64,000 nucleotides of DNA from an uncultured delta proteobacterium (lineage in GTDB: Bacteria > Desulfobacterota > Deferrisomatia > Deferrisomatales > JACRMM01): positions 62,643-126,642 of the forward strand of contig CAVPOV010000014.1 of assembly GCA_963707045.1 (NCBI GenBank). Reading direction: 5' to 3'. This document shows, in pieces, positions 8,973 to 55,941 of this stretch. The notes under the pieces are model-generated. The model did no database searches, was not told where the DNA came from, and was given only the letters and a program-made list of their open reading frames with translations. Positions within the stretch are counted from its first letter, which is position 1. Every line of letters starts with the position of its first letter. Position numbers and translations under genes: made by a program.

Positions 8973-10136
8973 TCATGGCGCCTCCGTGCCTTCGGCGAGA
9001 ACGCCGAGGTACCGGTGGTACACGAAGAGGCGGTTTCGTCGCTTGCCGGTCAGCTCCCGGACGAGTCCGAGCCCCTCTAGGAGTTCCATCGCGGCGGATG
9101 CCGCCGGGAAGGACAGCCCGGTTGTCCGGCAGACCTGGGGCATCGCGAGGATCGGTCGCGCCTTGAGCGCCTCGTGGACCCGAAGGGCCGAGCCCGCCCG
9201 GCGTCCACTCGACTCCACGTTCGCCCGATCCACCCTGAACATCTCGGCCAGGCGCTGAGCCGTGGAGACCGCTCCTTCAGCGGTCCGCCGCACCCCCTCC
9301 AGGAAGAACGTGAGCCACGCTTCCCAATCCCCGGTGCGCCGCACCCGCTCGAGCAGTTCGTAGTACGCAGGCCGGTTCTGCTTCAGGTAGAGGCTCAGGT
9401 ACAGGAGAGGCTCCCGCAGTACGCCGGTCTGGCAGAGCAGGAGCGGGATGAGCAGGCGCCCGACCCGCCCGTTTCCGTCGAGGAAGGGGTGGATCGTCTC
9501 GAACTGGACGTGCGCGAGACCGGCCCGCACCAAGACGGGCAGCCCATCGCCTTCCGCATGAAGAAAGCGCTCGAGCGCCGCCATGCAGTCCGGCACCACC
9601 GTGTGCGGCGGGGGGACGAAGACGGCGTTTCCGGGTCGGGTGCCGCCGATCCAGTTCTGGGATCGACGGAACTCCCCGGGATCCTTCGCGCTGCCGCGCC
9701 GCCGCGAGAGCAGCACGCCGTGGACCTCGCGGATCAGTCGATTGGAGAGAGGAAAGCCTTCCCGCAGGCGGTCCAGCCCGTGCTCCAGCGCCGCGACGCA
9801 GTTCGACACCTCGACCACGTCGTCCAGGGGAACACCCGGGGCCTCGTCCAACTCGAAGAGCAGAAGGTCCGACAGCGACGACTGCGTGCCTTCGATCTGG
9901 GACGACAGCACCGCCTCCTTGCGCACATAGGCGTAAAGGAAGAGCGATTTGTCGGGCAGGAGGGTCGAGACGCCGTCGAGGCGGCCGACGGCGAGCACAG
10001 CGGATTCGAACGTCTGCTGGAGTGCGCCATCGAAGGCCAGCGGTGGCTCCGGCGGAAGGGGGGCCGGCACGAAGGCGCGAACCTCCTCGCCTCCGGCGCT
10101 CGTGACCTCGTACCGGCCGGTCTCCCCACGCTCCAT
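8973..10136 (-). CDS. Fic/DOC-family protein (AMPylase-type) with an N-terminal inhibitory motif and a C-terminal wHTH-like region
   Basis: HPFLDGNGRVGRLL matches the Fic motif HxFx(D/E)GNGRxxR. SSQIEG matches the intramolecular inhibitory motif (S/T)xxxE(G/N). The 387-aa ORF is clean. Confidence 0.9.
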   Translation of the reverse strand: MERGETGRYEVTSAGGEEVRAFVPAPLPPEPPLAFDGALQQTFESAVLAVGRLDGVSTLLPDKSLFLYAYVRKEAVLSSQIEGTQSSLSDLLLFELDEAPGVPLDDVVEVSNCVAALEHGLDRLREGFPLSNRLIREVHGVLLSRRRGSAKDPGEFRRSQNWIGGTRPGNAVFVPPPHTVVPDCMAALERFLHAEGDGLPVLVRAGLAHVQFETIHPFLDGNGRVGRLLIPLLLCQTGVLREPLLYLSLYLKQNRPAYYELLERVRRTGDWEAWLTFFLEGVRRTAEGAVSTAQRLAEMFRVDRANVESSGRRAGSALRVHEALKARPILAMPQVCRTTGLSFPAASAAMELLEGLGLVRELTGKRRNRLFVYHRYLGVLAEGTEAP

Positions 10137-10738: not shown

Positions 10739-11626
10739 TCAGCCCAGTTCCGGGTACGCCCGGGGTGCCACATCCCGACAGCGTTGCTCCAGCTGGTGGG
10801 CGATGCGCTGAATCATAACTTCTGGAAGGCTTGCGCCGCCTCGGGGGTCGGCTAGGAACGCGGGGGTCTTGCCGTTGAACACGGCTGGGCCGTCGGGCGC
10901 CGTCCGCTCCACGTACCACCCCGGCAGGGTCAGGGCGGGCCGCACCGCCACCGGTTCTCCCACCGCGCTCGTGAGCCACTTGCCCAGCCATTCGGCCTGG
11001 CGAATCGCCTGTTCGAGCGGCACGGTCTCTGACCACGTTGGAAAGCCCAGTGTCCGGCCATCGTAGACCACGCGGGCCGAGTCCTTCCCCTTCCCCTTTT
11101 TCGTCCGGGCCTTGGTCTCCACGGCCCACACCCCCGCCGGCCCGACCACGACGTGGTCGATGTTGAAGCGCTCGCCGGGAACGTCATGGAAGACCCGGCA
11201 GCCCCGGAGCATTAACTGGTTCAGCTCCTCCCCGACGGCACGCTCCCCGTCTAGACCCAATCTCAAACGATCCCGTTCGTCTAAGCGTGAAATCAGCCGG
11301 TAGGCGCCTATCACCACTCCACCGATACAGAGCACTCCAGCCAAAATGAGGCGCTCCGCGTTCATCCCACCTCTTGGGTAGAAGAGGACGACGGCTCCAG
11401 AGGTCATCAGCAACGGCCACAGGAGGACTAGGAGCGCTTCGTTCAAGATCTGATCGCCGATTTCCTCAAGGCGGTTCCGGAGGGACTCCCCAGGGCTTCG
11501 CAACAGATCTCTTGTCAAAGGATTCCGGCGCCCAGCGCGTCGAGCACGCCAGCGGCGCAGGTAGACAAGCCCAAGGACCACGGGCATTCCGGAGGGGGCG
11601 AGGAGGAGTTCTGCTGGCACCTGCAT
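10739..11626 (-). CDS. membrane-anchored NERD (nuclease-related domain) protein
   Basis: I took the start at ATG 11626 (MQVPAELLL...). N-terminal hydrophobic helices are followed by GERAVGEELNQLMLRGCRVFHDVPGERFNIDHVVVGPAGVWAVETK, the NERD-domain core pattern. Confidence 0.75.
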   Translation of the reverse strand: MQVPAELLLAPSGMPVVLGLVYLRRWRARRAGRRNPLTRDLLRSPGESLRNRLEEIGDQILNEALLVLLWPLLMTSGAVVLFYPRGGMNAERLILAGVLCIGGVVIGAYRLISRLDERDRLRLGLDGERAVGEELNQLMLRGCRVFHDVPGERFNIDHVVVGPAGVWAVETKARTKKGKGKDSARVVYDGRTLGFPTWSETVPLEQAIRQAEWLGKWLTSAVGEPVAVRPALTLPGWYVERTAPDGPAVFNGKTPAFLADPRGGASLPEVMIQRIAHQLEQRCRDVAPRAYPELG

Positions 11627-11709
11627 TGAAGTCGCCTTCGTAGCGGGAGAGGGCCAGAGGAAGAGCCTACAACCCCTGGCACGACGGGGTTCCGGCTTCC
11701 CCTCAAGGA

Positions 11710-12339
11710 TCAGAACCGATCGGCGTCGGCCGTTCGGCCCTTCTCGGCACGGCGACGGCTCAGCGCCTCGGCCTCCCGTGCGCCCTTGTCCTTTAGGGTG
11801 AGGTCCACGTAGTGAAGTTGGAGCGCCGAGCCCGGCCCAATCTGGACGAGCACGCGGTCCGTGGGGCTGGGCGACCACTGCTTCGCCCCGCGGTACAGGA
11901 GGAGCTCCCCCAGACTCCCCGGGATGGGCCAGTCGAAACCTCCGTACTTCCGGGAGAGGATCTGCACGAGGTTGGCCTCCCGCAGTTCCCGATCGTCTTT
12001 CGTGCCCGAGCTGGAGTTCCAGGCCACGTCCACGCTGTGCAGCTCCCGGGTGTACGGTGTCAGCTTCAGCGTAACCCGGGCCGGCCATTCCAGCAGGCGC
12101 GTCGCGTAGCTGTACGACGAATGCTTCCCGACGTCCTTCGTGGCAACCTGGTGGTTGTAGCGCTTGTTGATGTGGACATGCGGACTCGGTGCGATGGGAA
12201 GATCGTGGTCTCGGGCCGTCGCAAGAATCTGAGACAGCCCCATCCCGGAGCGCCAGACGTCGAACTCGAACGCGGCGGAGGTGGAGGGACGGCCAAACGC
12301 GAGCAGGGCGCCGAGGAGGACCAGGGCTGTACGAACCAT
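11710..12339 (-). CDS. secreted hypothetical protein
   Basis: The start MVRTALVLLGALLAFGRPSTSAA looks like a signal peptide. The ORF is 210 codons and no family was recognised. Confidence 0.55.
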   Translation of the reverse strand: MVRTALVLLGALLAFGRPSTSAAFEFDVWRSGMGLSQILATARDHDLPIAPSPHVHINKRYNHQVATKDVGKHSSYSYATRLLEWPARVTLKLTPYTRELHSVDVAWNSSSGTKDDRELREANLVQILSRKYGGFDWPIPGSLGELLLYRGAKQWSPSPTDRVLVQIGPGSALQLHYVDLTLKDKGAREAEALSRRRAEKGRTADADRF

Positions 12340-24225: not shown

Positions 24226-26673
<2,448 letters not shown>

Positions 26674-26684
<11 letters not shown>

Positions 26685-27759
26685 GGAGGATCTGTCCCTT
26701 CTGGATGCGGAAATCCGCTCGTTCTTCGCCCCGGGGCAGGGGAACCGCCTCGGGGTCCGTCACCGCCACCAGGACCTGACCGGACCACCGGGCGAGGAAG
26801 TCGCCGAGGTAGCCGAGCCTCCGGCTGTCGAGCTCCGAGCCGGGGTCGTCGAGGAGGAAGACGGGCTCCTCCCCGAGTTGGTCGCGCCCCCAGAGCAGGA
26901 GGCCGAGCTTGAGGCTCAGCGCCAGGGTCCGCAGCTGGCCCTGGGACGCGTGGCTCTCCACCGGCCGACCGCCGATGCGCACGCGGAGCGCGTCGCGGTG
27001 GGGCCCCACCGTGGTGAAGCCCAGCCGCCGGTCGGTCTCGCGGGCCTCGGCCAGGGCTTCCCGAAAAGCTTCGAGGTCCCCCGGATCCCCCGGCCCGGAC
27101 GGATCGTAGGCCAGCCGGACCTCGTCGTTTCCCCCCGAGATGTCGCCGTGGATGGCGGCCACGGCCGGCGCCACCCCCGCAAGGGTCGCCCCCCGCGCCG
27201 CGCGCACCCGTATGGCGGCGCCGCACAGCGTCTCGTCCCACACGTCGAGACTGGAGGGGTCGCCCCGGAGCGCGAAGTTCCTCTGCCGCAACGCCCTAGT
27301 ATACTCCCGAAGGGCCCCCAGGTGGGAGGCGTCGCGGACGAAGGACGCCCGGTCCAGGTAGCGGCGGCGCTGGTCCTGGCTCCCCCTGGCGAGGTCGAGG
27401 TCCGCCGGGCTGAACAGGACGGTCTGGAAGTGGGCGAGATACTGGGCCGTGCTCTCGGGGACCTTGTCGTCGACCCAGGCGGTGCGCCCTTGCCCGTCGA
27501 GGGCGACCCGGAGGTCCACCTCTCCCTCTCGGCCGACCACCCGCCCCTTCAGGAGGGCGTTCTCTCCCCCGGCCTCGATCAGGTCCCGCGGTCGCCGCGT
27601 GCGGAAGCTCTGCAGGTTCGAGAGCAGGTGGACCGCCTCGATGAGGTTCGTCTTTCCCTGGGCGTTCTCCCCGTGGAAGACCGAGAAGCGGCGCGCCGTC
27701 TCGATCTGGGCCTCCTGCAGGTTGCGGAACCCCCGGACTCCGATCCGCAGGAGCCTCAT
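26674..27759 (-). CDS. recF: DNA replication and repair protein RecF
   Basis: [15 protein letters not shown]...[15 protein letters not shown] carries the Walker A. The SMC-like signature [15 protein letters not shown] and the Walker [12 protein letters not shown] are present. The gene sits between dnaN and gyrB. Confidence 0.95.
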
Positions 27760-29104: not shown

Positions 29105-30445
29105 TCATGGGCCGAGGGAGGCGCGGATCGCGTCGACGTGGCTTCGCAGTTCGGCATCGGTCGGAAGGGCGTCGGCGATCTTGGAGCACGCGTACATGAC
29201 CGTGCTGTGGTCCCGGCCGCCGATCTTCGTGCCGATCTCCGGGAAGGAGCAGGCCGTGAGGTCGCGGGCCAGGTACATGGCGATCTGGCGCGGCAGGGCG
29301 ATGGCCCGGGTGCGGCGCTTCCCGCGCAGATCGACCACGGAGACCTGGAAGTGGGAGCACACGGCCTTGACCACCCGGTCCACCGTGATCTCCCGGGCGG
29401 TGTCGCGGATCAGGTCCTTGAGGACGCCTCGGGCCAGTTCGATGGTGATCGGCGCGTGGGTCAGGCTGGCGAAGGCGCCGATGCGGACCAGGGCCCCCTC
29501 GAGCTCGCGGATGTTCGAGGTGAAGTGCTTGGCGAGGAAGTGGGCCACGTCGTCGGGCAGGGGTACGGACTCCACCTGGGCCTTCTTCTGGAGAATCGCG
29601 ACCTTGGTCTCCATGTCCGGGGCCTGGATGTCGGCGATGAGCCCCCACTCGAAGCGGGAGCGGAGGCGGTCTTCGAGCCCCGGGATGTCCTTCGGGAACT
29701 TGTCGCTCGTGACGACGATGTTCCGGTGGCCCTCGTACAGGGCGTTGAAGGTGTGGAAGAACTCCTCCTGGGTCCTCTCCTTGCCGGAGATGAACTGGAT
29801 GTCGTCCATCAGGAGGACGTCCATCCGGCGGTACTTCTCGCGGAACTCCGGCATCTTCTTGTTCGCGAGCGCCTGGATGAGCTCGTTCATGAAGCTCTCG
29901 CTGTGCACGTAGCACACGCGCATGTCCGGGTAGTTGGCGAGCTTGAAGTTGCCGATGGCGTTGAGGAGGTGGGTCTTCCCGAGCCCGACGCCGCCGTAGA
30001 TGAACAGGGGGTTGTACGTGCGCGGTGACTTCTCCGCCACGGCGTGACTCGCCGCGTGGGCGAACTGGTTGGAGGAACCGACCACGAAGGCGTCGAAGGT
30101 GTACTTGGGGTTGAGCCCGATGCGCTTGGCCCGGCTCTGCCAGTCGGGAGTGGCCGAAGGCCTGGCCTTCGGGGACGAGGCCGTACGGAGGTAGGCCTTC
30201 TCCTCGGGTTGGACGACGAAGTCGATCTCGATCTCGCGGCCGGCCTGGCGCACCAGGGAGGCCCGGATCAGGGAGACGTAGTCGTGCTCCTGGAGCCAGT
30301 CGATGAAGAACTTGTTCGGGACCTCGACCGTGGCGCGGCCGTCGGTGATCTGGACGGGATGGAGGGGGGCCACCCAGGTGGCGAAGGCGTGGGCGGGCAA
30401 CGCGGCTTCGAGGTCGGAGAGGACGTCCTTCCAGAGGTTGTCCAT
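29105..30445 (-). CDS. dnaA: chromosomal replication initiator protein DnaA
   Basis: 446-aa clean ORF. The AAA+ Walker A is IYGGVGLGKTHLLNAIG. The C-terminal DNA-binding domain reads RQIAMYLARDLT..SFPEIGTKIGGRDHSTVMYACSKI. Confidence 0.97.
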   Translation of the reverse strand: MDNLWKDVLSDLEAALPAHAFATWVAPLHPVQITDGRATVEVPNKFFIDWLQEHDYVSLIRASLVRQAGREIEIDFVVQPEEKAYLRTASSPKARPSATPDWQSRAKRIGLNPKYTFDAFVVGSSNQFAHAASHAVAEKSPRTYNPLFIYGGVGLGKTHLLNAIGNFKLANYPDMRVCYVHSESFMNELIQALANKKMPEFREKYRRMDVLLMDDIQFISGKERTQEEFFHTFNALYEGHRNIVVTSDKFPKDIPGLEDRLRSRFEWGLIADIQAPDMETKVAILQKKAQVESVPLPDDVAHFLAKHFTSNIRELEGALVRIGAFASLTHAPITIELARGVLKDLIRDTAREITVDRVVKAVCSHFQVSVVDLRGKRRTRAIALPRQIAMYLARDLTACSFPEIGTKIGGRDHSTVMYACSKIADALPTDAELRSHVDAIRASLGP

Positions 30446-45810: not shown

Positions 45811-46600
45811 ATGAGCCGAATCTTGTCGGTCGCCAACCAGAAGGGCGGGGTCGGCAAGACCACCACCGCCGTCAACCTCGCCGCGTCCCTCGCCGACGCC
45901 GGCGAGCGGGTGCTGCTCTTCGACATCGACCCCCAGGCCAACGCGTCCGCCGGGCTGGGGGTGCGTGCCGCAGAGACGGAGCTCCACCACCTATGACGCC
46001 CTCGCGGGCCTGGCCCCCCTCACGGAGCTGGTTCGTGACCACCCAGCTCGACGCACCTCTCCCTCGTCCCGGCCAGCCGCCACCTGGCCGGCGCCGAGGT
46101 GGAGCTGGTGTCGGCGCGAACGCCGCGAGTACCGGCTGCGGGAGGCGCTGCAGGGGGCCCGCGGCCGATTACGACTACGTGCTTCTCGACTGCCCGCCGA
46201 GCCTCGGGCCTGCTCACCATCAACGCGCTGGTGGCCTCGGACGCGGTGATCATCCCCCTCCAGTGCGAGTACTACGCCCTGGAGGGGCTGTGCCAGCTGC
46301 TCCAGACCGATCCGCACGGTCAAGCGCAGCTTCAACCCGACCCTGGACATCCAGGGCATCGCTCCTCACCATGTTCGACACCCGCAACAACCTCAGCCAC
46401 CAGGTGGCCGAGGAGGTGAAGCGCCACTTCCAGGGACAAGGTGTTCCAGTCGGTCATCCCGCGCAACGTGCGGCTCAGCGAAGCGCCCAGCCACGGCAAG
46501 CCCGCCTTGCTCTACGAATCCGCGCAGCGCCGGCGCCCAGGGCTATCTCAACATGGCCCGGGAATTGCTCGACCTGACCCGGCGCGCGCCAGCCGGCAGA
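45811..46600 (+). pseudogene. parA: chromosome partitioning ATPase ParA (Soj), with many frame changes (3' end approximate)
   Basis: [28 protein letters not shown] carries the deviant Walker A. Later ParA segments ([65 protein letters not shown]) are spread over three frames. Confidence 0.85.
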
Positions 46601-46632
46601 TCCTTCGTGCCGTCTCGCCAAGGGGGACCGCC

Positions 46633-47504
46633 ATGCCCGCCTCGGCCAAACGCCACAGCGACTGCCCTCGGCATGGGCCTCGACGCCCTGCTTCCCGACC
46701 GCCTGCAGGGCGAGTACTTCCTCTGCCCGGTGGAGGACATCCGACCCCAGCCCCCAGCAGCCCCGCCAGCAGTTTCCCGAGGAGGCCATTCAGGAACTGG
46801 CCGACAGCATCCGGGAGAAGGGCCTGATCCAGCCGGTGATCCTGCGGCGCTCGGCAGGAGCGGGGGCCGTACGAGCTCATCGCCGGCGAACGGCGCTGGC
46901 GGGCGGCCCAGCGGGCCGGGCTCACGGAGCTCCCCGCCGTCCTGCGGCAGGCCGACGAGGAGGAGGTCCTCGAGCTGGCGCTCGATCGAGAACCTGCAGC
47001 GCGAGGACCTGAACCCCGTCGACCAAGCCGAGGCGTACCAGGTGCTGCTCGACAGACGGGGCTCACCCAGGAAGAGGTGGCCCAGCGAAGATCGGCAAGT
47101 CGCGGGTCGCGGTGGCGAACACGCTGCGCCTGCTGTCGCTGCCGGCCGCCGTGCTGGAGGCCCTGCGCACCGGTACCGTCACGGCGGGACACGCCCGGGC
47201 CATCCTCACGGTGGAGGGGGAGGCCCGGCGCCTGGCCCTGCTCGACCGGGTGGTCCGCCGGGGGCTGTCGGTGCGGGAGGCGGAGGCCCTGGCGCGCCGA
47301 CCCGCGGCCCCCCGGGCGGAGCGGGCGCGCCCGCGGGACCCGAACCTCCGGGCCTTGGAAGAACGGCTGGCCCGCCGCCTGGGGACCCGCGTGGTGTTGC
47401 GGGGCGGGCGTCGGAAGGGGGCCGGTCACATCGCGATCGAGTACCGGAACCTCGACGACCTGGACCGCCTGCTCGGTCTCCTGGAGGGATCCCCGAAGCG
47501 CTAG
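46633..47504 (+). pseudogene. parB: chromosome partitioning protein ParB (Spo0J), with frame changes in the N-terminal two-thirds
   Basis: AAGGGGGA RBS precedes ATG 46633. ParB segments [37 protein letters not shown] and IENLQREDLNP lie in shifting frames. The sequence is clean from about 47100 (RVAVANTLRLLSLPAAVLEAL...) to the stop at 47504. Confidence 0.85.
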
Positions 47505-47594: not shown

Positions 47595-47867
47595 GTGCTA
47601 GCTAACCGACCCTTCTGGAAGAAGGTGGCCGACCCCCGGGAGCTCAAGGATCTCTCGGAGCACCTGGGCTTGGTCTCCCAGCTGGGACTCACGATGGTGG
47701 CGGCCATCGGCATCGCCCTCGCCATCGGGCACGGGCTGGACCGGTGGCTGGGCACGGGGGGGCTGTGGAAGGCCCTGTTCATCCCCGTGGGCGTGCTGTC
47801 CGGCGGATGGGCCGTGTACAAGGTGGTCGCGGCCGTGGGGCGCCGCGCGGAGGATCGCCGGCGATGA
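47595..47867 (+). CDS. AtpZ/AtpI-type small membrane protein preceding the ATP synthase genes
   Basis: There are two TM helices (LGLTMVAAIGIALAIGHGLDRWLGTGG and ALFIPVGVLSGGWAVY). It is the first gene of the atp cluster. The start is uncertain. Confidence 0.55.
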   Translation: MLANRPFWKKVADPRELKDLSEHLGLVSQLGLTMVAAIGIALAIGHGLDRWLGTGGLWKALFIPVGVLSGGWAVYKVVAAVGRRAEDRRR

Positions 47868-48946: not shown

Positions 48947-49681
48947 GTGGACGCGGCCTCCTTCGCGCGGGTCGGGGCGTACCTGGGGGCCGGGGTGTGC
49001 GTGGGGCTCGGGGCCATCGGGGCGGCCCTGGGCGAGGGCTACGCGGCGCGCGCGGCGGTGGAGGGCATCGCCCGGCAGCCCCGGGCGAGCGCGGGGCTGC
49101 TGCGCACCATGCTGGTGGGCCAGGCGGTGGCCGAGTCCGCGAGCATCTTCGCCCTGGTCGTGGGGTTCCTCCTCCTCTTCACGCCGTGGAGTGCGAGGGA
49201 CTACGTGGAGGGCGTCGCCCTGTTCTCGGCGGGCCTGTGCATGGGGGTGGGGGCACTCGGGCCGGGCTTCGGAGCGGGGCAGGCGGGGGCCATGGCGTGT
49301 CAGGGCGTCGCGCGCCAGCCCCAGGCGGCCCAGCCCCTCACCACCGTGATGCTCGTGGGGCAGGCGGTGGCCCAGACCCCGGCCGTGTTCGCGCTGCTCG
49401 TCTCCTTCCTGATCCTGTTTCGGGACTACGGCGAACGGGTGAACCCGCTGGTGGCCTCGGCCGCCCTGCTCGGGGCCGCGGTCGCGACCGGCGTGGGCGC
49501 CGTGGGGCCCGGGGTGGGCGCGGGCTCGGCGGCGGCGGCGGCCTGCGACGCCACCTCCCGGAATCGGGACCAGGCCCCCGCCCTGCTGCGGACGATGCTC
49601 GTGGGCCAGGCGGTCAGCCAGTCCACCAGCATCTACGCCCTGGTGGTGTCCCTTCTCCTTCTCTACGTTCCGTTCCTGTAA
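48947..49681 (+). CDS. fused triple-hairpin ATP synthase c subunit (three tandem c-subunit repeats in one polypeptide)
   Basis: GTG 48947 to TAA 49679-81 with no internal stop. Each repeat carries GxGxGxG plus ARQP/RNRD-loop plus LVGQAV(A/S)(E/Q)... The repeats read ...[14 protein letters not shown] (E63), ...[14 protein letters not shown] (Q143) and ...MLVGQAVSQSTSIY (Q225). Confidence 0.8.
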   Translation: MDAASFARVGAYLGAGVCVGLGAIGAALGEGYAARAAVEGIARQPRASAGLLRTMLVGQAVAESASIFALVVGFLLLFTPWSARDYVEGVALFSAGLCMGVGALGPGFGAGQAGAMACQGVARQPQAAQPLTTVMLVGQAVAQTPAVFALLVSFLILFRDYGERVNPLVASAALLGAAVATGVGAVGPGVGAGSAAAAACDATSRNRDQAPALLRTMLVGQAVSQSTSIYALVVSLLLLYVPFL

Positions 49682-49695
49682 AACGGAGGTGACGC

Positions 49696-49950
49696 ATGGC
49701 CGTCGAAATCTCGGGAGCCGACATCATACGCGCCGCGGCGCTGCTCGGGGCGGGCATCGCCATGGGCTTCGGGGCCATCGGGCCGGGGGTGGGCGAGGGC
49801 TTCGCCGCGGGAAAGGCGTGCGAGGGCATCGCCCGCGCGCCGGAGCACGCGAACCTGCTGACGAGGACGATGCTCGTGGGCCAGGCCGTGGCCGAATCCA
49901 CGGGCATCTACTCCCTGGTCATCGCGCTGCTCCTGATCTTCGTGGTGTGA
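49696..49950 (+). CDS. atpE: F0F1 ATP synthase subunit c (single hairpin)
   Basis: GGAGGT RBS. The sequence is [84 protein letters not shown]. Confidence 0.95.
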
Positions 49951-50052: not shown

Positions 50053-50480
50053 GTGATCAATCTCAACTGCCACGCTGCTCATCCAGCTCGCGAATTTCCT
50101 GCTGCTGATGTTCCTGCTCAACCGCATCCTCTTCCGGCCGATGGTGCGCCTGCTCGACGAGCGGCGGGAGCGCACGGAGGGGCGGAAGAAGAAGGCGGTC
50201 GAGACGGAGGGCCAGGCCCAGGCCATCTGGGACGACTACCAGAAGAAGATCCACGACGCGAAGGCCGAGGCGGACCGCGTGCGGGCCCAGGTGGTGCGCC
50301 GAGGCCGAGGCGGAACGCGAGAAGCTGCTCGAAGGGGCGGCGGCCTCGGCGGAGAAGACGGTGACCCAGGTGCGCGCGCGGGTTCGGGCCGAGGCCGAGG
50401 ACGCCCGCAAGGCGCTGCGCGAAGAGGCCGGGCGCCTCGGGGCCGCCGCGGCCGAACGCATTCTCGGGAGGGCGATGTGA
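50053..50480 (+). pseudogene. atpF: ATP synthase subunit b', with 2 frame changes
   Basis: VINLN then, after an extra T at 50068, ATLLIQLANFLLLMFLLNRILFRPMVRLLDERRERTEG... There is a second switch near 50295. The gene ends ...AAAERILGRAM*. Confidence 0.75.
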
Positions 50481-51072
50481 TGTCGCGCGATTCGATCCGC
50501 CGGGCTTTCGGGCGGCTGCTGGCCCTGGCCGTGCTGGCCGCTCCCGCCGTGGCCGCGGCGAGCGAGGCGGCCGGGGAGGCGGCCGGCAACCCCTGGTACG
50601 ACCTGATCATGAAGTTCGTGAACTTCGCCATCCTCGTCGGGATGCTCTTCTACTTCCTGCGAAAGCCGGTCACGCCAGGGGCTGGCCGACCGCCGCGCCA
50701 CCGTCAAGCGCGAGCTCGAGGAGGCCCTCAAGGCCAAGGAGACACGCGGAGGCGAAGTACCGGGAGTACGGCCAGGGGTGGCGAACCTGGAGGCGGAGAT
50801 CCGCCGCATCCAGGAGGACTTCCAGGTCGAGGGGGAGCGTCAGAAGGACCGGATCGTCGCCGAGGCGCGAGAAGGCGCGCGGAGTCCATCCGCGCCCACG
50901 CGGAGGCGGCCGGCGCCAACGAGGTCAAGCGGGCTACCGGACGAGCTTCGCGCCGAGGTGGGGCGGCTCGCGGTGGAGCTCGCCGAGCAGCTGCTGGTCA
51001 AGGCCTACACCGCCAAAGACCAGGAACACGCCGTCAAGCTCACCATCGAAGAACGTCGAGGGGCTCAATTGA
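50480..51072 (+). pseudogene. atpF: ATP synthase subunit b, with several frame changes
   Basis: The ATG overlaps the previous stop (TGATG). The sequence is MSRDSIRRAFGRLLALAVLAAPAVA...WYDLIMKFVNFAILVGMLFYFLRKPV, followed by coiled-coil segments (VANLEAEIRRIQEDFQVEGERQKDRIVAEAREGA, LAVELAEQLLVKAYTAKDQEHAVKLTIE) in other frames. Confidence 0.75.
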
Positions 51073-51604
51073 TTCGCACCCGCATTGCCCAGCGCTACAC
51101 CAAGGCCCTGTTCGAACTGGCCCAGGAAGCCGGGCAGACCACGGAAGTCGCGGAGCAGACTCCAGGCCGTCAGACGGCGTCCTGTCCGAGCAGGAGGACC
51201 TGCGCACGGCACTGCTCAGCCCCGTGCTGACGCGGACCGCGAAGGCGGAGGTGCTCGAGGCGCTGCTCGGGGCGGCGGCCTTCGACCCGCTCGTGGCCAA
51301 CTTCCTCCGCGTGCTCCTGGAGGCCCGCAAGCTCCGCTACCTGGGCGACGTCCTGGGTGCCTACCGCGACATGGTGGACGACGCGGAGCGGCCGGGTCCA
51401 CGGCGAGGCCGTGACCCCGCAGGCCCTGAGGCCTCGGAGGTCGCACGCCCTGACCGCGGCCCTGGCCAAGGCGCTCGGCAAGGAAGTGGAGCTCGAGGCC
51501 CGGGTCAGGACCCCGTCCCTGCTCGGCGGCGTGGTGGCCCGGGTGGGCAACCTGGTGTTCGACGGAAGCCTTCGCACCCAGCTCGAGCGATCAAGGAAAT
51601 CTGA
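51069..51604 (+). pseudogene. atpH: ATP synthase subunit delta, with several frame changes
   Basis: IRTRIAQRYTKALFELAQEAGQ, ...[19 protein letters not shown]...[27 protein letters not shown] and ...[24 protein letters not shown] lie in different frames. Confidence 0.75.
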
Positions 51605-51622
51605 CCAAGGGGTGACTAGACG

Positions 51623-53148
<1,526 letters not shown>

Positions 53149-53167
53149 CCGCCGGGGAGCGTGACGC

Positions 53168-54043
<876 letters not shown>

Positions 54044-54083
54044 TAGATACTTCGCATACCATTTGGAAGGAGGCAGTAAGCCC

Positions 54084-55941
<1,858 letters not shown>

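Follow-up and report, generated by a model that had tools for sequence, protein, structure and literature searches.

What does an F-type ATP synthase do with a rotor subunit that has three membrane hairpins but an ion-binding carboxylate in only one of them? The question is raised by a 64,000-nucleotide stretch of DNA from an uncultured delta proteobacterium (contig CAVPOV010000014.1, positions 62,643 to 126,642), hereafter the window. An open reading frame (ORF) that we call c3 lies there between atpB, encoding Fo subunit a, and atpE, encoding an ordinary single-hairpin c subunit, hereafter single c. An earlier note, made from the letters of the window, had read c3 as a fusion of c-subunit hairpins and suggested a mixed rotor with a lowered ion-to-ATP ratio. 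We find that c3 is a genuine gene with a large family of relatives, and we think it probable, if by no means certain, that it serves as a minor subunit of a mixed, Na+-coupled c ring, to which it brings three hairpins but one site.

Three hairpins and one carboxylate

The c3 frame (48947-49681, + strand) consists of 244 codons and a stop, and its translation has no internal stop. Searches with PF00137 (143.4 bits against a cut-off of 24, E 2.4e-42, three ATP-synt_C stretches) and TIGR01260 (106 bits against a cut-off of 43.95) identify it as a c subunit, and the translation and the three Pfam domains agree with the earlier claim of three tandem c hairpins in one uninterrupted ORF. In the ORF listing the frame is open already from 48293, across atpB, because of the high G+C content. 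GTG at 48947 is taken as the start because the N-termini of homologs and the Joint Genome Institute (JGI) gene call in L081, a syntenic contig 90% identical to the window, agree. The hairpins are as follows:

48947-49192, + strand: hairpin 1, amino acids 1-82, live half-site; Glu30 (the Q/E32 position of Ilyobacter tartaricus) and Glu63 (the E65 position)
49193-49432, + strand: hairpin 2, amino acids 83-162, silent; Ala at position 32, Gln143, then T-P-F
49433-49678, + strand: hairpin 3, amino acids 163-244, silent; Ala at position 32, Gln225; S-T-Y retained

The carboxylate of hairpin 1, Glu63, is encoded by GAG (49133-49135), and the other face of this hairpin, S-A-F, is degenerate. Gln143 and Gln225 are each encoded by CAG (49373-49375 and 49619-49621), and the predicted pattern of one Glu followed by two Gln residues, with Gln and not Glu at both silent sites, is borne out at the codon level. 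A carboxylate is thus found in the second helix of hairpin 1 only, and not in that of every hairpin, as is the rule in F-type c subunits. Hairpins 1 and 2 retain the R-Q-P loop motif, by which c subunits contact F1. The three hairpins and single c align without gaps at a mutual identity of 44-55%. An AlphaFold2 model of c3 gives three helical hairpins and the six membrane helices that had been expected of it, some of them kinked in DSSP (predicted local distance difference test, pLDDT, 95.4; predicted template-modeling score, pTM, 0.91). A repeated 'RDY' in the c3 linkers, together with the 'IRD-stop' ending of atpB, was considered as a remnant of old gene junctions; the idea was dropped because relatives do not retain the motif at the first junction.

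In the c ring of I. tartaricus the Na+ site is shared, with Glu65 and Gln32 coming from subunit A and Ser66 and the Val63 carbonyl from subunit B (PMC2359735). In Fusobacterium nucleatum, Glu32 replaces Gln32, Thr67 holds a bound water, and Tyr70 hydrogen-bonds Glu65 (PMC3692424). Numbered accordingly, the hairpins of the window read:

Hairpin 1: E and E at positions 32 and 65; S, A and F at positions 66, 67 and 70
Hairpin 2: A and Q at positions 32 and 65; T, P and F at positions 66, 67 and 70
Hairpin 3: A and Q at positions 32 and 65; S, T and Y at positions 66, 67 and 70
Single c: E and E at positions 32 and 65; S, T and Y at positions 66, 67 and 70

Single c has the complete E32/V63/E65/S66/T67/Y70 set, that is, all Na+ ligands listed for F. 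nucleatum (PMC3692424), and over 66-69 residues it shares 62% identity with the c subunits of I. tartaricus and of F. nucleatum. The earlier description of an adjacent 84-residue c subunit with a two-carboxylate Na+-type motif was correct (49696-49950, with GPGVGEG in its sequence and the full E/E-S-T-Y). From the ligands at the live sites, Na+ coupling of this two-carboxylate, F. nucleatum type is predicted.

The multi-hairpin family and its ion half-sites

The earlier note had proposed a survey of homologous atp operons for fused c genes, and such genes proved to be common. A protein search returned hundreds of c3 relatives of ~242, 324 and 400-406 amino acids, and a genome scan with c3 gave at least 275 loci with a multi-hairpin c among species-representative genomes. 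In a library of 50%-identity representatives, 101 clusters match c3 at E <= 1e-30. By the lineage names in the sequence records, the family is found mostly in Desulfobacterales (Desulfosarcina, Desulfonema, Desulfococcus), and further carriers are Syntrophobacteraceae, Methylomirabilis, Brocadiaceae, Nitrospinaceae and Cloacimonadota bins. Two isolates are among them, Dethiosulfatarculus sandiegensis SPR and Desulfacinum infernum DSM 9756, the latter with a 324-amino-acid member. Databases label these proteins merely 'ATP synthase F0 subunit C'. A full-text literature search turned up no account of an F-type c subunit with three or more hairpins, although an earlier mention is possible. The earlier note had known of no described example either; c3 is not peculiar to the window, however, but one of a family of hundreds of species.

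Close orthologs have the same length as c3 or nearly so. P0001 has 244 amino acids and is 95% identical, and P0074, P0084 and P0108 have 242 amino acids and are 70-73% identical; L082 also falls in the 242-amino-acid group. At least six independent assemblies contain an ortholog of the same length. When the window is compared with L081, the ratio of nonsynonymous to synonymous substitution rates (dN/dS) is 0.072 for c3 and 0.03-0.11 for its single hairpins, similar figures being obtained for atpB (0.065) and c (0.086).

Family members have 3, 4, 5 or 6 hairpins. E-Q-Q, E-Q-Q-Q and E-Q-Q-Q-Q predominate at the carboxylate position, and some variants have Glu in the last hairpin too. The extreme of the series is L074 (1839-3290), with six hairpins reading E-Q-Q-Q-Q-Q and hence five consecutive silent positions, followed by a single c and a full delta-to-epsilon operon. 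The five-hairpin relatives L045, L039 and L070 each have a single c gene after them. Overall, in 79 of 82 loci a single-hairpin c gene with the E-E-S-T-Y signature comes after the multi-hairpin one; of the other three, two end at a contig edge, and the third, L011, has the reverse order and an all-Glu two-hairpin gene. Most three-hairpin loci on long enough contigs continue into delta-alpha-gamma-beta-epsilon. Four-hairpin loci of Desulfobacterales end after b, within the 6 kb of sequence covered.

Other arrangements of fused hairpins were also seen. L054 and L080, from a Cloacimonadota bin, have three hairpins with the reverse pattern Q-Q-E, the first two silent and the last live, and the position of the live hairpin is therefore not fixed across all lineages. 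P0194, P0200, P0201 and ~40 similar proteins form a separate four-hairpin c group of ~315-321 amino acids, ~30% identical to c3, whose pattern E-Q-E-D (QETxL / SQTPF / LETPF / SDTxY) retains three of four carboxylates. There are also very long all-Glu concatemers: P0155 (1139 amino acids, 15 hairpins), P0176 (968, 11), P0235 (631, 7), P0256 (524, 7) and P0153 (434, 5). These may be whole rings in one polypeptide, and they recall the c protein of Methanopyrus kandleri, which has 13 hairpins.

How the half-sites of neighboring hairpins vary together was counted in 200 members of the family, related to one another and in part redundant; the counts are uncorrected for phylogeny. Where hairpin i+1 has Glu, hairpin i has Tyr70 at 57 of 69 internal junctions; where hairpin i+1 has Gln, it has Tyr70 at 1 of 600. 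Glu at position 32 goes together with Glu65 in 241 of 265 cases, and Gln occupies 603 of 604 silent positions. These counts fit a geometry in which the face formed by residues 66, 67 and 70 of a hairpin would complete the site of the hairpin after it. In c3 the junctions between hairpins 1 and 2 and between hairpins 2 and 3 would then lack both halves of a site, and the live junctions, c to hairpin 1 and hairpin 3 to c, would be complete. Retention of S-T-Y in the last hairpin fits the same geometry, because the last hairpin would then complete the site of the next, live subunit. The opposite geometry, in which this face completes the site of the preceding hairpin, does not fit the Tyr70 counts in these 200 members. 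The coordinated loss of both half-sites, together with the conservation of Gln, looks like selection for a defined non-binding state.

Operon setting, a proposed mixed rotor and its rivals

The genes of the operon in the window are:

47595-47867, + strand: atpZ-like small membrane protein, first operon gene (PF09527, ATPase_gene1, Pfam E 1.7e-12); also in L081 and L082
47864-48244, + strand: atpI-like protein, 126 amino acids, start MTEAAFRRH; position and sequence agree with the 126-amino-acid gene of L081
48267-48941, + strand: atpB, Fo subunit a, 224 amino acids (PF00119 E 1.3e-45; TIGR01131 129 bits, above cut-off)
48947-49681, + strand: c3, fused three-hairpin c subunit, 244 amino acids, GTG start, weak Shine-Dalgarno GAGG; three ATP-synt_C stretches
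49696-49950, + strand: atpE, single-hairpin c subunit, 84 amino acids, ATG start, strong Shine-Dalgarno GGAGGTGA (PF00137 E 4.1e-18)
50053-50480, + strand: b', mapped from the intact relative L081
50480-51072, + strand: b, mapped from L081
51069-51615, + strand: delta, mapped from L081
51623-53148, + strand: alpha, mapped from L081
53168-54037, + strand: gamma, mapped from L081
54084-55506, + strand: beta, mapped from L081
55523-55941, + strand: epsilon, mapped from L081

The PF03899 match of the atpI-like gene is weak (E 0.0024, under the curated Pfam cut-off). In atpB we take the motif SFRLYGN, assigned by eye, to contain the essential stator Arg. L081 has the intact order mnmG-rsmG-parA-parB-atpZ-atpI-atpB-c3 (244 amino acids)-c (84 amino acids)-b'-b-delta-alpha-gamma-beta-epsilon, with only one atpB and one set of F1 genes. 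The F-type operon context claimed for c3 thus holds in the window and in L081, the gene lying between atpB and the b genes with delta, alpha, gamma, beta and epsilon downstream. Farther upstream in the window lie genes of the replication-origin region:

25142-26128, - strand: gyrB fragment
26674-27759, - strand: recF
29105-30445, - strand: dnaA

Because of these genes, the window is seen to span the chromosomal replication-origin region, with mnmG-rsmG-parAB and then atp. The order mnmG-rsmG-parA-parB-atp downstream of the origin is that of E. coli, and an origin-adjacent site is the classical place of the main housekeeping atp operon. For this reason we infer a working ATP synthase and favor it over a dedicated pump. 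Two other genes of the window, a Fic/DOC family protein (8973-10136, - strand) and a NERD nuclease-related domain protein (10739-12088, - strand), have no relation to c3.

The translation signals of the two c genes differ. Single c genes have a strong Shine-Dalgarno match (mean 6.0 nt; in the window GGAGGTGA before ATG), whereas that of multi-hairpin genes is weak (mean 4.1 nt, ten of them with none; in the window GAGG before GTG). This is a hint at stoichiometry, and because of it c3 is taken to be the minor subunit: it would be made in smaller amounts than single c, and both would co-assemble in one ring, as c1 does with c2/c3 in Acetobacterium woodii. Each site of such a ring would have an A half, Glu65 and residue 32 from one hairpin, and a B half, Ser66, Thr67, Tyr70 and the Val63 carbonyl from the preceding hairpin. 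Hairpin 1 of c3 would supply a full A half (Glu30, Glu63), to be completed by the S-T-Y face of the preceding c. The two internal junctions would be silent, Gln standing in for a permanently neutral Glu, and the S-T-Y of hairpin 3 would complete the site of the c subunit that follows. A ring of n single c subunits and one c3 would then have n+3 hairpins and n+1 sites and, since c3 brings three hairpins but one site, would carry fewer ions per ATP. Purely for illustration, one c3 in a ring of 11 hairpins would leave 9 sites and bring the ions per ATP from 3.7 down to 3.0; this size was chosen because single c is 62% identical to the subunits that form the c11 rings of I. tartaricus and F. nucleatum. 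The gene, its conservation, the covariation of the ligands, the operon and the translation signals are read directly from the sequences; co-assembly, the number of copies per ring, ring size, Na+ specificity and the direction of operation are all predictions from them. The earlier note had arrived at a mixed rotor with a lower ion/ATP ratio, and this is also the best explanation here.

Ion specificity cannot be read with certainty from sequence, and a ring of the same architecture might be coupled to H+ instead of Na+. Hairpin 1 gives this some color, as it has Ala and Phe at the Thr67 and Tyr70 positions. Under the geometry supported by the Tyr70 counts, however, those residues face a silent junction, and each live site has the full ligand set, E32/V63/E65/S66/T67/Y70, that binds Na+ in F. 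nucleatum and I. tartaricus, with whose Na+ subunits single c shares the identity given above. We regard H+ coupling as unlikely, though worth keeping in view.

Because adjacent silent positions would make synthesis difficult, two further readings, a homomeric c3 pump ring and an architectural role, stay in contention. In the first, two alternative rotors would be built with the same F1, a and b parts: c-only rings for ATP synthesis, and c3-only rings acting as a V-ATPase-like, ATP-driven Na+ pump. Four copies of c3, for example, would give 12 hairpins, 4 sites and ~1.3 ions per ATP, and low ion/ATP ratios are an accepted hallmark of pumps (PMC9171764). The S-T-Y of the last hairpin suits hairpin 1 of another c3 equally well as it suits single c, and the five consecutive silent sites of L074 are easier to reconcile with ATP-driven rotation. 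However, contig-edge loci aside, none of the 82 loci has a multi-hairpin gene without a single c gene, the operon offers no second atpB or F1 set, the weak translation signals point to a minor subunit, and the sole solved precedent, that of A. woodii, is a mixed ring. We therefore consider separate rotors rather improbable.

In the second, c3 would be a nucleus or ruler for ring assembly, its three-hairpin arc setting the curvature and starting c oligomerization. The lost sites would then be a by-product that is tolerated, and not a tuned gear ratio. Na+ F-ATPases need the help of AtpI to assemble their rings, and atpI- and atpZ-like genes do precede the c genes of this operon. The variation in hairpin number from 3 to 6 between lineages is also as expected if the exact number of sites matters less. 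But a scaffold has no need to lose its carboxylates, and near-invariant Gln at the silent positions (603 of 604) with both half-sites erased in coordination looks, as said, like selection. This role would still place c3 in the ring and is hence compatible with a mixed rotor; as a full account of the gene we find it doubtful.

The remaining alternative concerns the gene itself and arises from the state of its surroundings. Relative to L081, about 120-150 one-base indels lie in parA, parB, b', b, delta, alpha, gamma, beta and epsilon (45811-47504 and 50053-55941). The genes from b' to epsilon have 4-20 each, and all of them are interrupted in the window. The indels are mostly insertions, of any base, not linked to homopolymer runs and patchy in distribution; because of this insertion bias and ordinary mismatch rates, they look like sequencing error rather than gene decay. 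In atpZ, atpB, c3 and c there are 0 indels, and this block is, as had been stated, free of frame changes. That the c3 ORF is nonetheless an assembly or sequencing artifact, or a decaying fusion of three tandem c genes, is what an error-rich window might suggest, but we consider it effectively refuted, because same-length orthologs lie on independent contigs alongside hundreds of 4-6-hairpin relatives, indels are absent from atpB, c3 and c, dN/dS is 0.07, Gln is conserved at silent positions and the hairpin model is confident; c3 is a real gene under selection.

Several points weigh against a mixed rotor in a working synthase. Two to five consecutive silent positions, five in L074, are an unsolved mechanical problem for ATP synthesis, since in a ring of ~11 hairpins the rotor would have to cover 65-165 degrees with no ion entering. 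In ATP hydrolysis silent arcs are trivial; synthesis would call for a large ring or for elastic storage. Nor is it obvious what energy-limited anaerobes would gain from a lower ion/ATP ratio. The sequences counted for covariation are kin and partly redundant, with no correction for phylogeny, and the F1 and stalk genes of the window are full of one-base indels, so that the intact enzyme is known only from relatives.

The F/V hybrid ring of A. woodii, with one silent site in 11 hairpins, has so far been treated as a curiosity and discussed as lying between the F-type synthases and the V-type pumps. What is new here is the hybrid-rotor principle in an apparently independent and much larger family, with two to five adjacent silent sites, whose carriers include the dominant lineages of marine sulfate reduction and of other anaerobic processes. 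Tentatively, and with less confidence than we place in the mixed ring as such, one may picture a graded 'gearbox' in the F-type synthases of widespread anaerobes (the Desulfosarcina/Desulfococcus group, Syntrophobacteraceae, Methylomirabilis, Brocadiaceae and Nitrospinaceae). One live site would be combined with 2-5 consecutive silent hairpins, Na+/ATP would be well below that of any homomeric ring, possibly ~2-3, and Fo would be forced through long arcs without ion input. If this is true and the enzymes still make ATP, models of torque generation and elastic coupling need revision. The family would be a natural series for the number of non-conducting positions that an Fo motor tolerates, for a possible tuning of the ion/ATP ratio at the thermodynamic limit, and for the coordinated dismantling of shared ion sites. 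Genome-based estimates of ATP yield for carriers may also need adjustment, because the assumption of one site per hairpin would overcount and the annotation says only 'ATP synthase F0 subunit C'. The two cultured carriers, Desulfacinum infernum DSM 9756 and Dethiosulfatarculus sandiegensis SPR, make the question experimentally approachable.

Comparison with known systems

Among hidden Markov models (HMMs), the F-type model NF009999 gives c3 181.6 bits, and V-type subunit K models give at most 60.9 bits, all below their cut-offs. These scores and the F-type operon rule out c3 as a V/A-type proteolipid (subunit K/c). The label 'V-type-like', which the earlier note had used in its comparison, is accordingly loose, the more so as live and silent hairpins come in the opposite order in Enterococcus hirae NtpK. 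N-ATPases (TIGR03322/TIGR03306) have the gene order atpDCQRBEFAG, without delta. The operon here has the standard order with delta present, and an N-ATPase was rejected. Single c reaches 67.6 bits against a cut-off of 130.85 in the N-ATPase models and subunit a 127 against 302; c3, with 148.3 bits, exceeds the TIGR03322 cut-off only through the sum of three hairpins.

V-type proteolipids (E. hirae NtpK and the eukaryotic c, c' and c'') resemble c3 in having linked hairpins with one site per subunit, a fold match at a template-modeling score (TM) of 0.8 on the target, and a site to which one hairpin contributes its second helix and the next hairpin the rest. They differ in having four helices rather than six, the live site in the second hairpin, and V-type operons. 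In E. hirae NtpK, Thr64 lies in the first hairpin and Gln110 and Glu139 in the second. There, Glu139 and Gln110 act as ligands with Thr64 (PMC2359735), as do their counterparts in the I. tartaricus ring. Both solved rings thus have the geometry supported by the Tyr70 counts. The A-type proteolipid of Methanocaldococcus jannaschii is triplicated (PMC2359735) and, like c3, has three hairpins per polypeptide and fewer sites than hairpins. It belongs to an archaeal A1AO enzyme, whereas c3 is F-type by HMM score and operon and has one carboxylate, in hairpin 1. The M. jannaschii protein retains two carboxylates, and its first hairpin is silent.

Closer to hand are the c subunits of F. nucleatum and I. 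tartaricus. Single c and the A half of hairpin 1 share with them Glu32 plus Glu65, and single c also Ser66, Thr67 and Tyr70. Their rings, however, are homomeric with one site per hairpin, and here a fused, partly silent subunit is encoded alongside.

The best solved match to c3 by sequence and by fold is A. woodii c1 (PDB 4BEM chain J; sequence E 1.1e-25, TM 0.83 on the target), and with the shared order of Glu before Gln this makes the earlier comparison an apt one. Four-helix V-type proteolipids are the next fold matches, and no solved chain covers all six c3 helices, the best query TM-score being 0.63. In the c1 subunits of A. woodii and Clostridium aceticum, hairpin 1 carries the site and hairpin 2 has Q..QT (PMC7911925). 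Nine c2/3 subunits and one c1 make up the A. woodii ring (PMC9171764), which has 10 Na+ sites and 3.3 Na+/ATP (PMC7793690). Hairpin 1 of A. woodii c1 reads E-T-S..F and hairpin 2 Q-T-T..Y, the same half-site logic as in c3. In a neighbor-joining tree of hairpins, made from short sequences and without support values, three classes (first hairpins, inner Gln hairpins and single c) each cluster for the most part regardless of taxon, and last hairpins are less cleanly resolved. The c1 hairpins of A. woodii fall with c2 of the same species, apart from the c3 family, and because of this grouping the tree, weak as it is, suggests that c1 and the c3 family arose independently. Both are multi-hairpin c subunits encoded between atpB and the single-hairpin c gene or genes of an F-type operon, followed by a single-hairpin c with the Na+ motif (for c3, atpE at 49696-49950; in the family, 79 of 82 loci). 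In both, the first hairpin has Glu and Gln comes after it, as E-Q in c1 and E-Q-Q in c3; both have lost Tyr70 in the hairpin that precedes a silent site and retain T/S-T-Y in the last. They part where c1 stops at two hairpins and one silent site, whereas c3 has three hairpins with two adjacent silent sites and its relatives up to five, and where the live sites of the c3 family have Glu, not Gln, at position 32.

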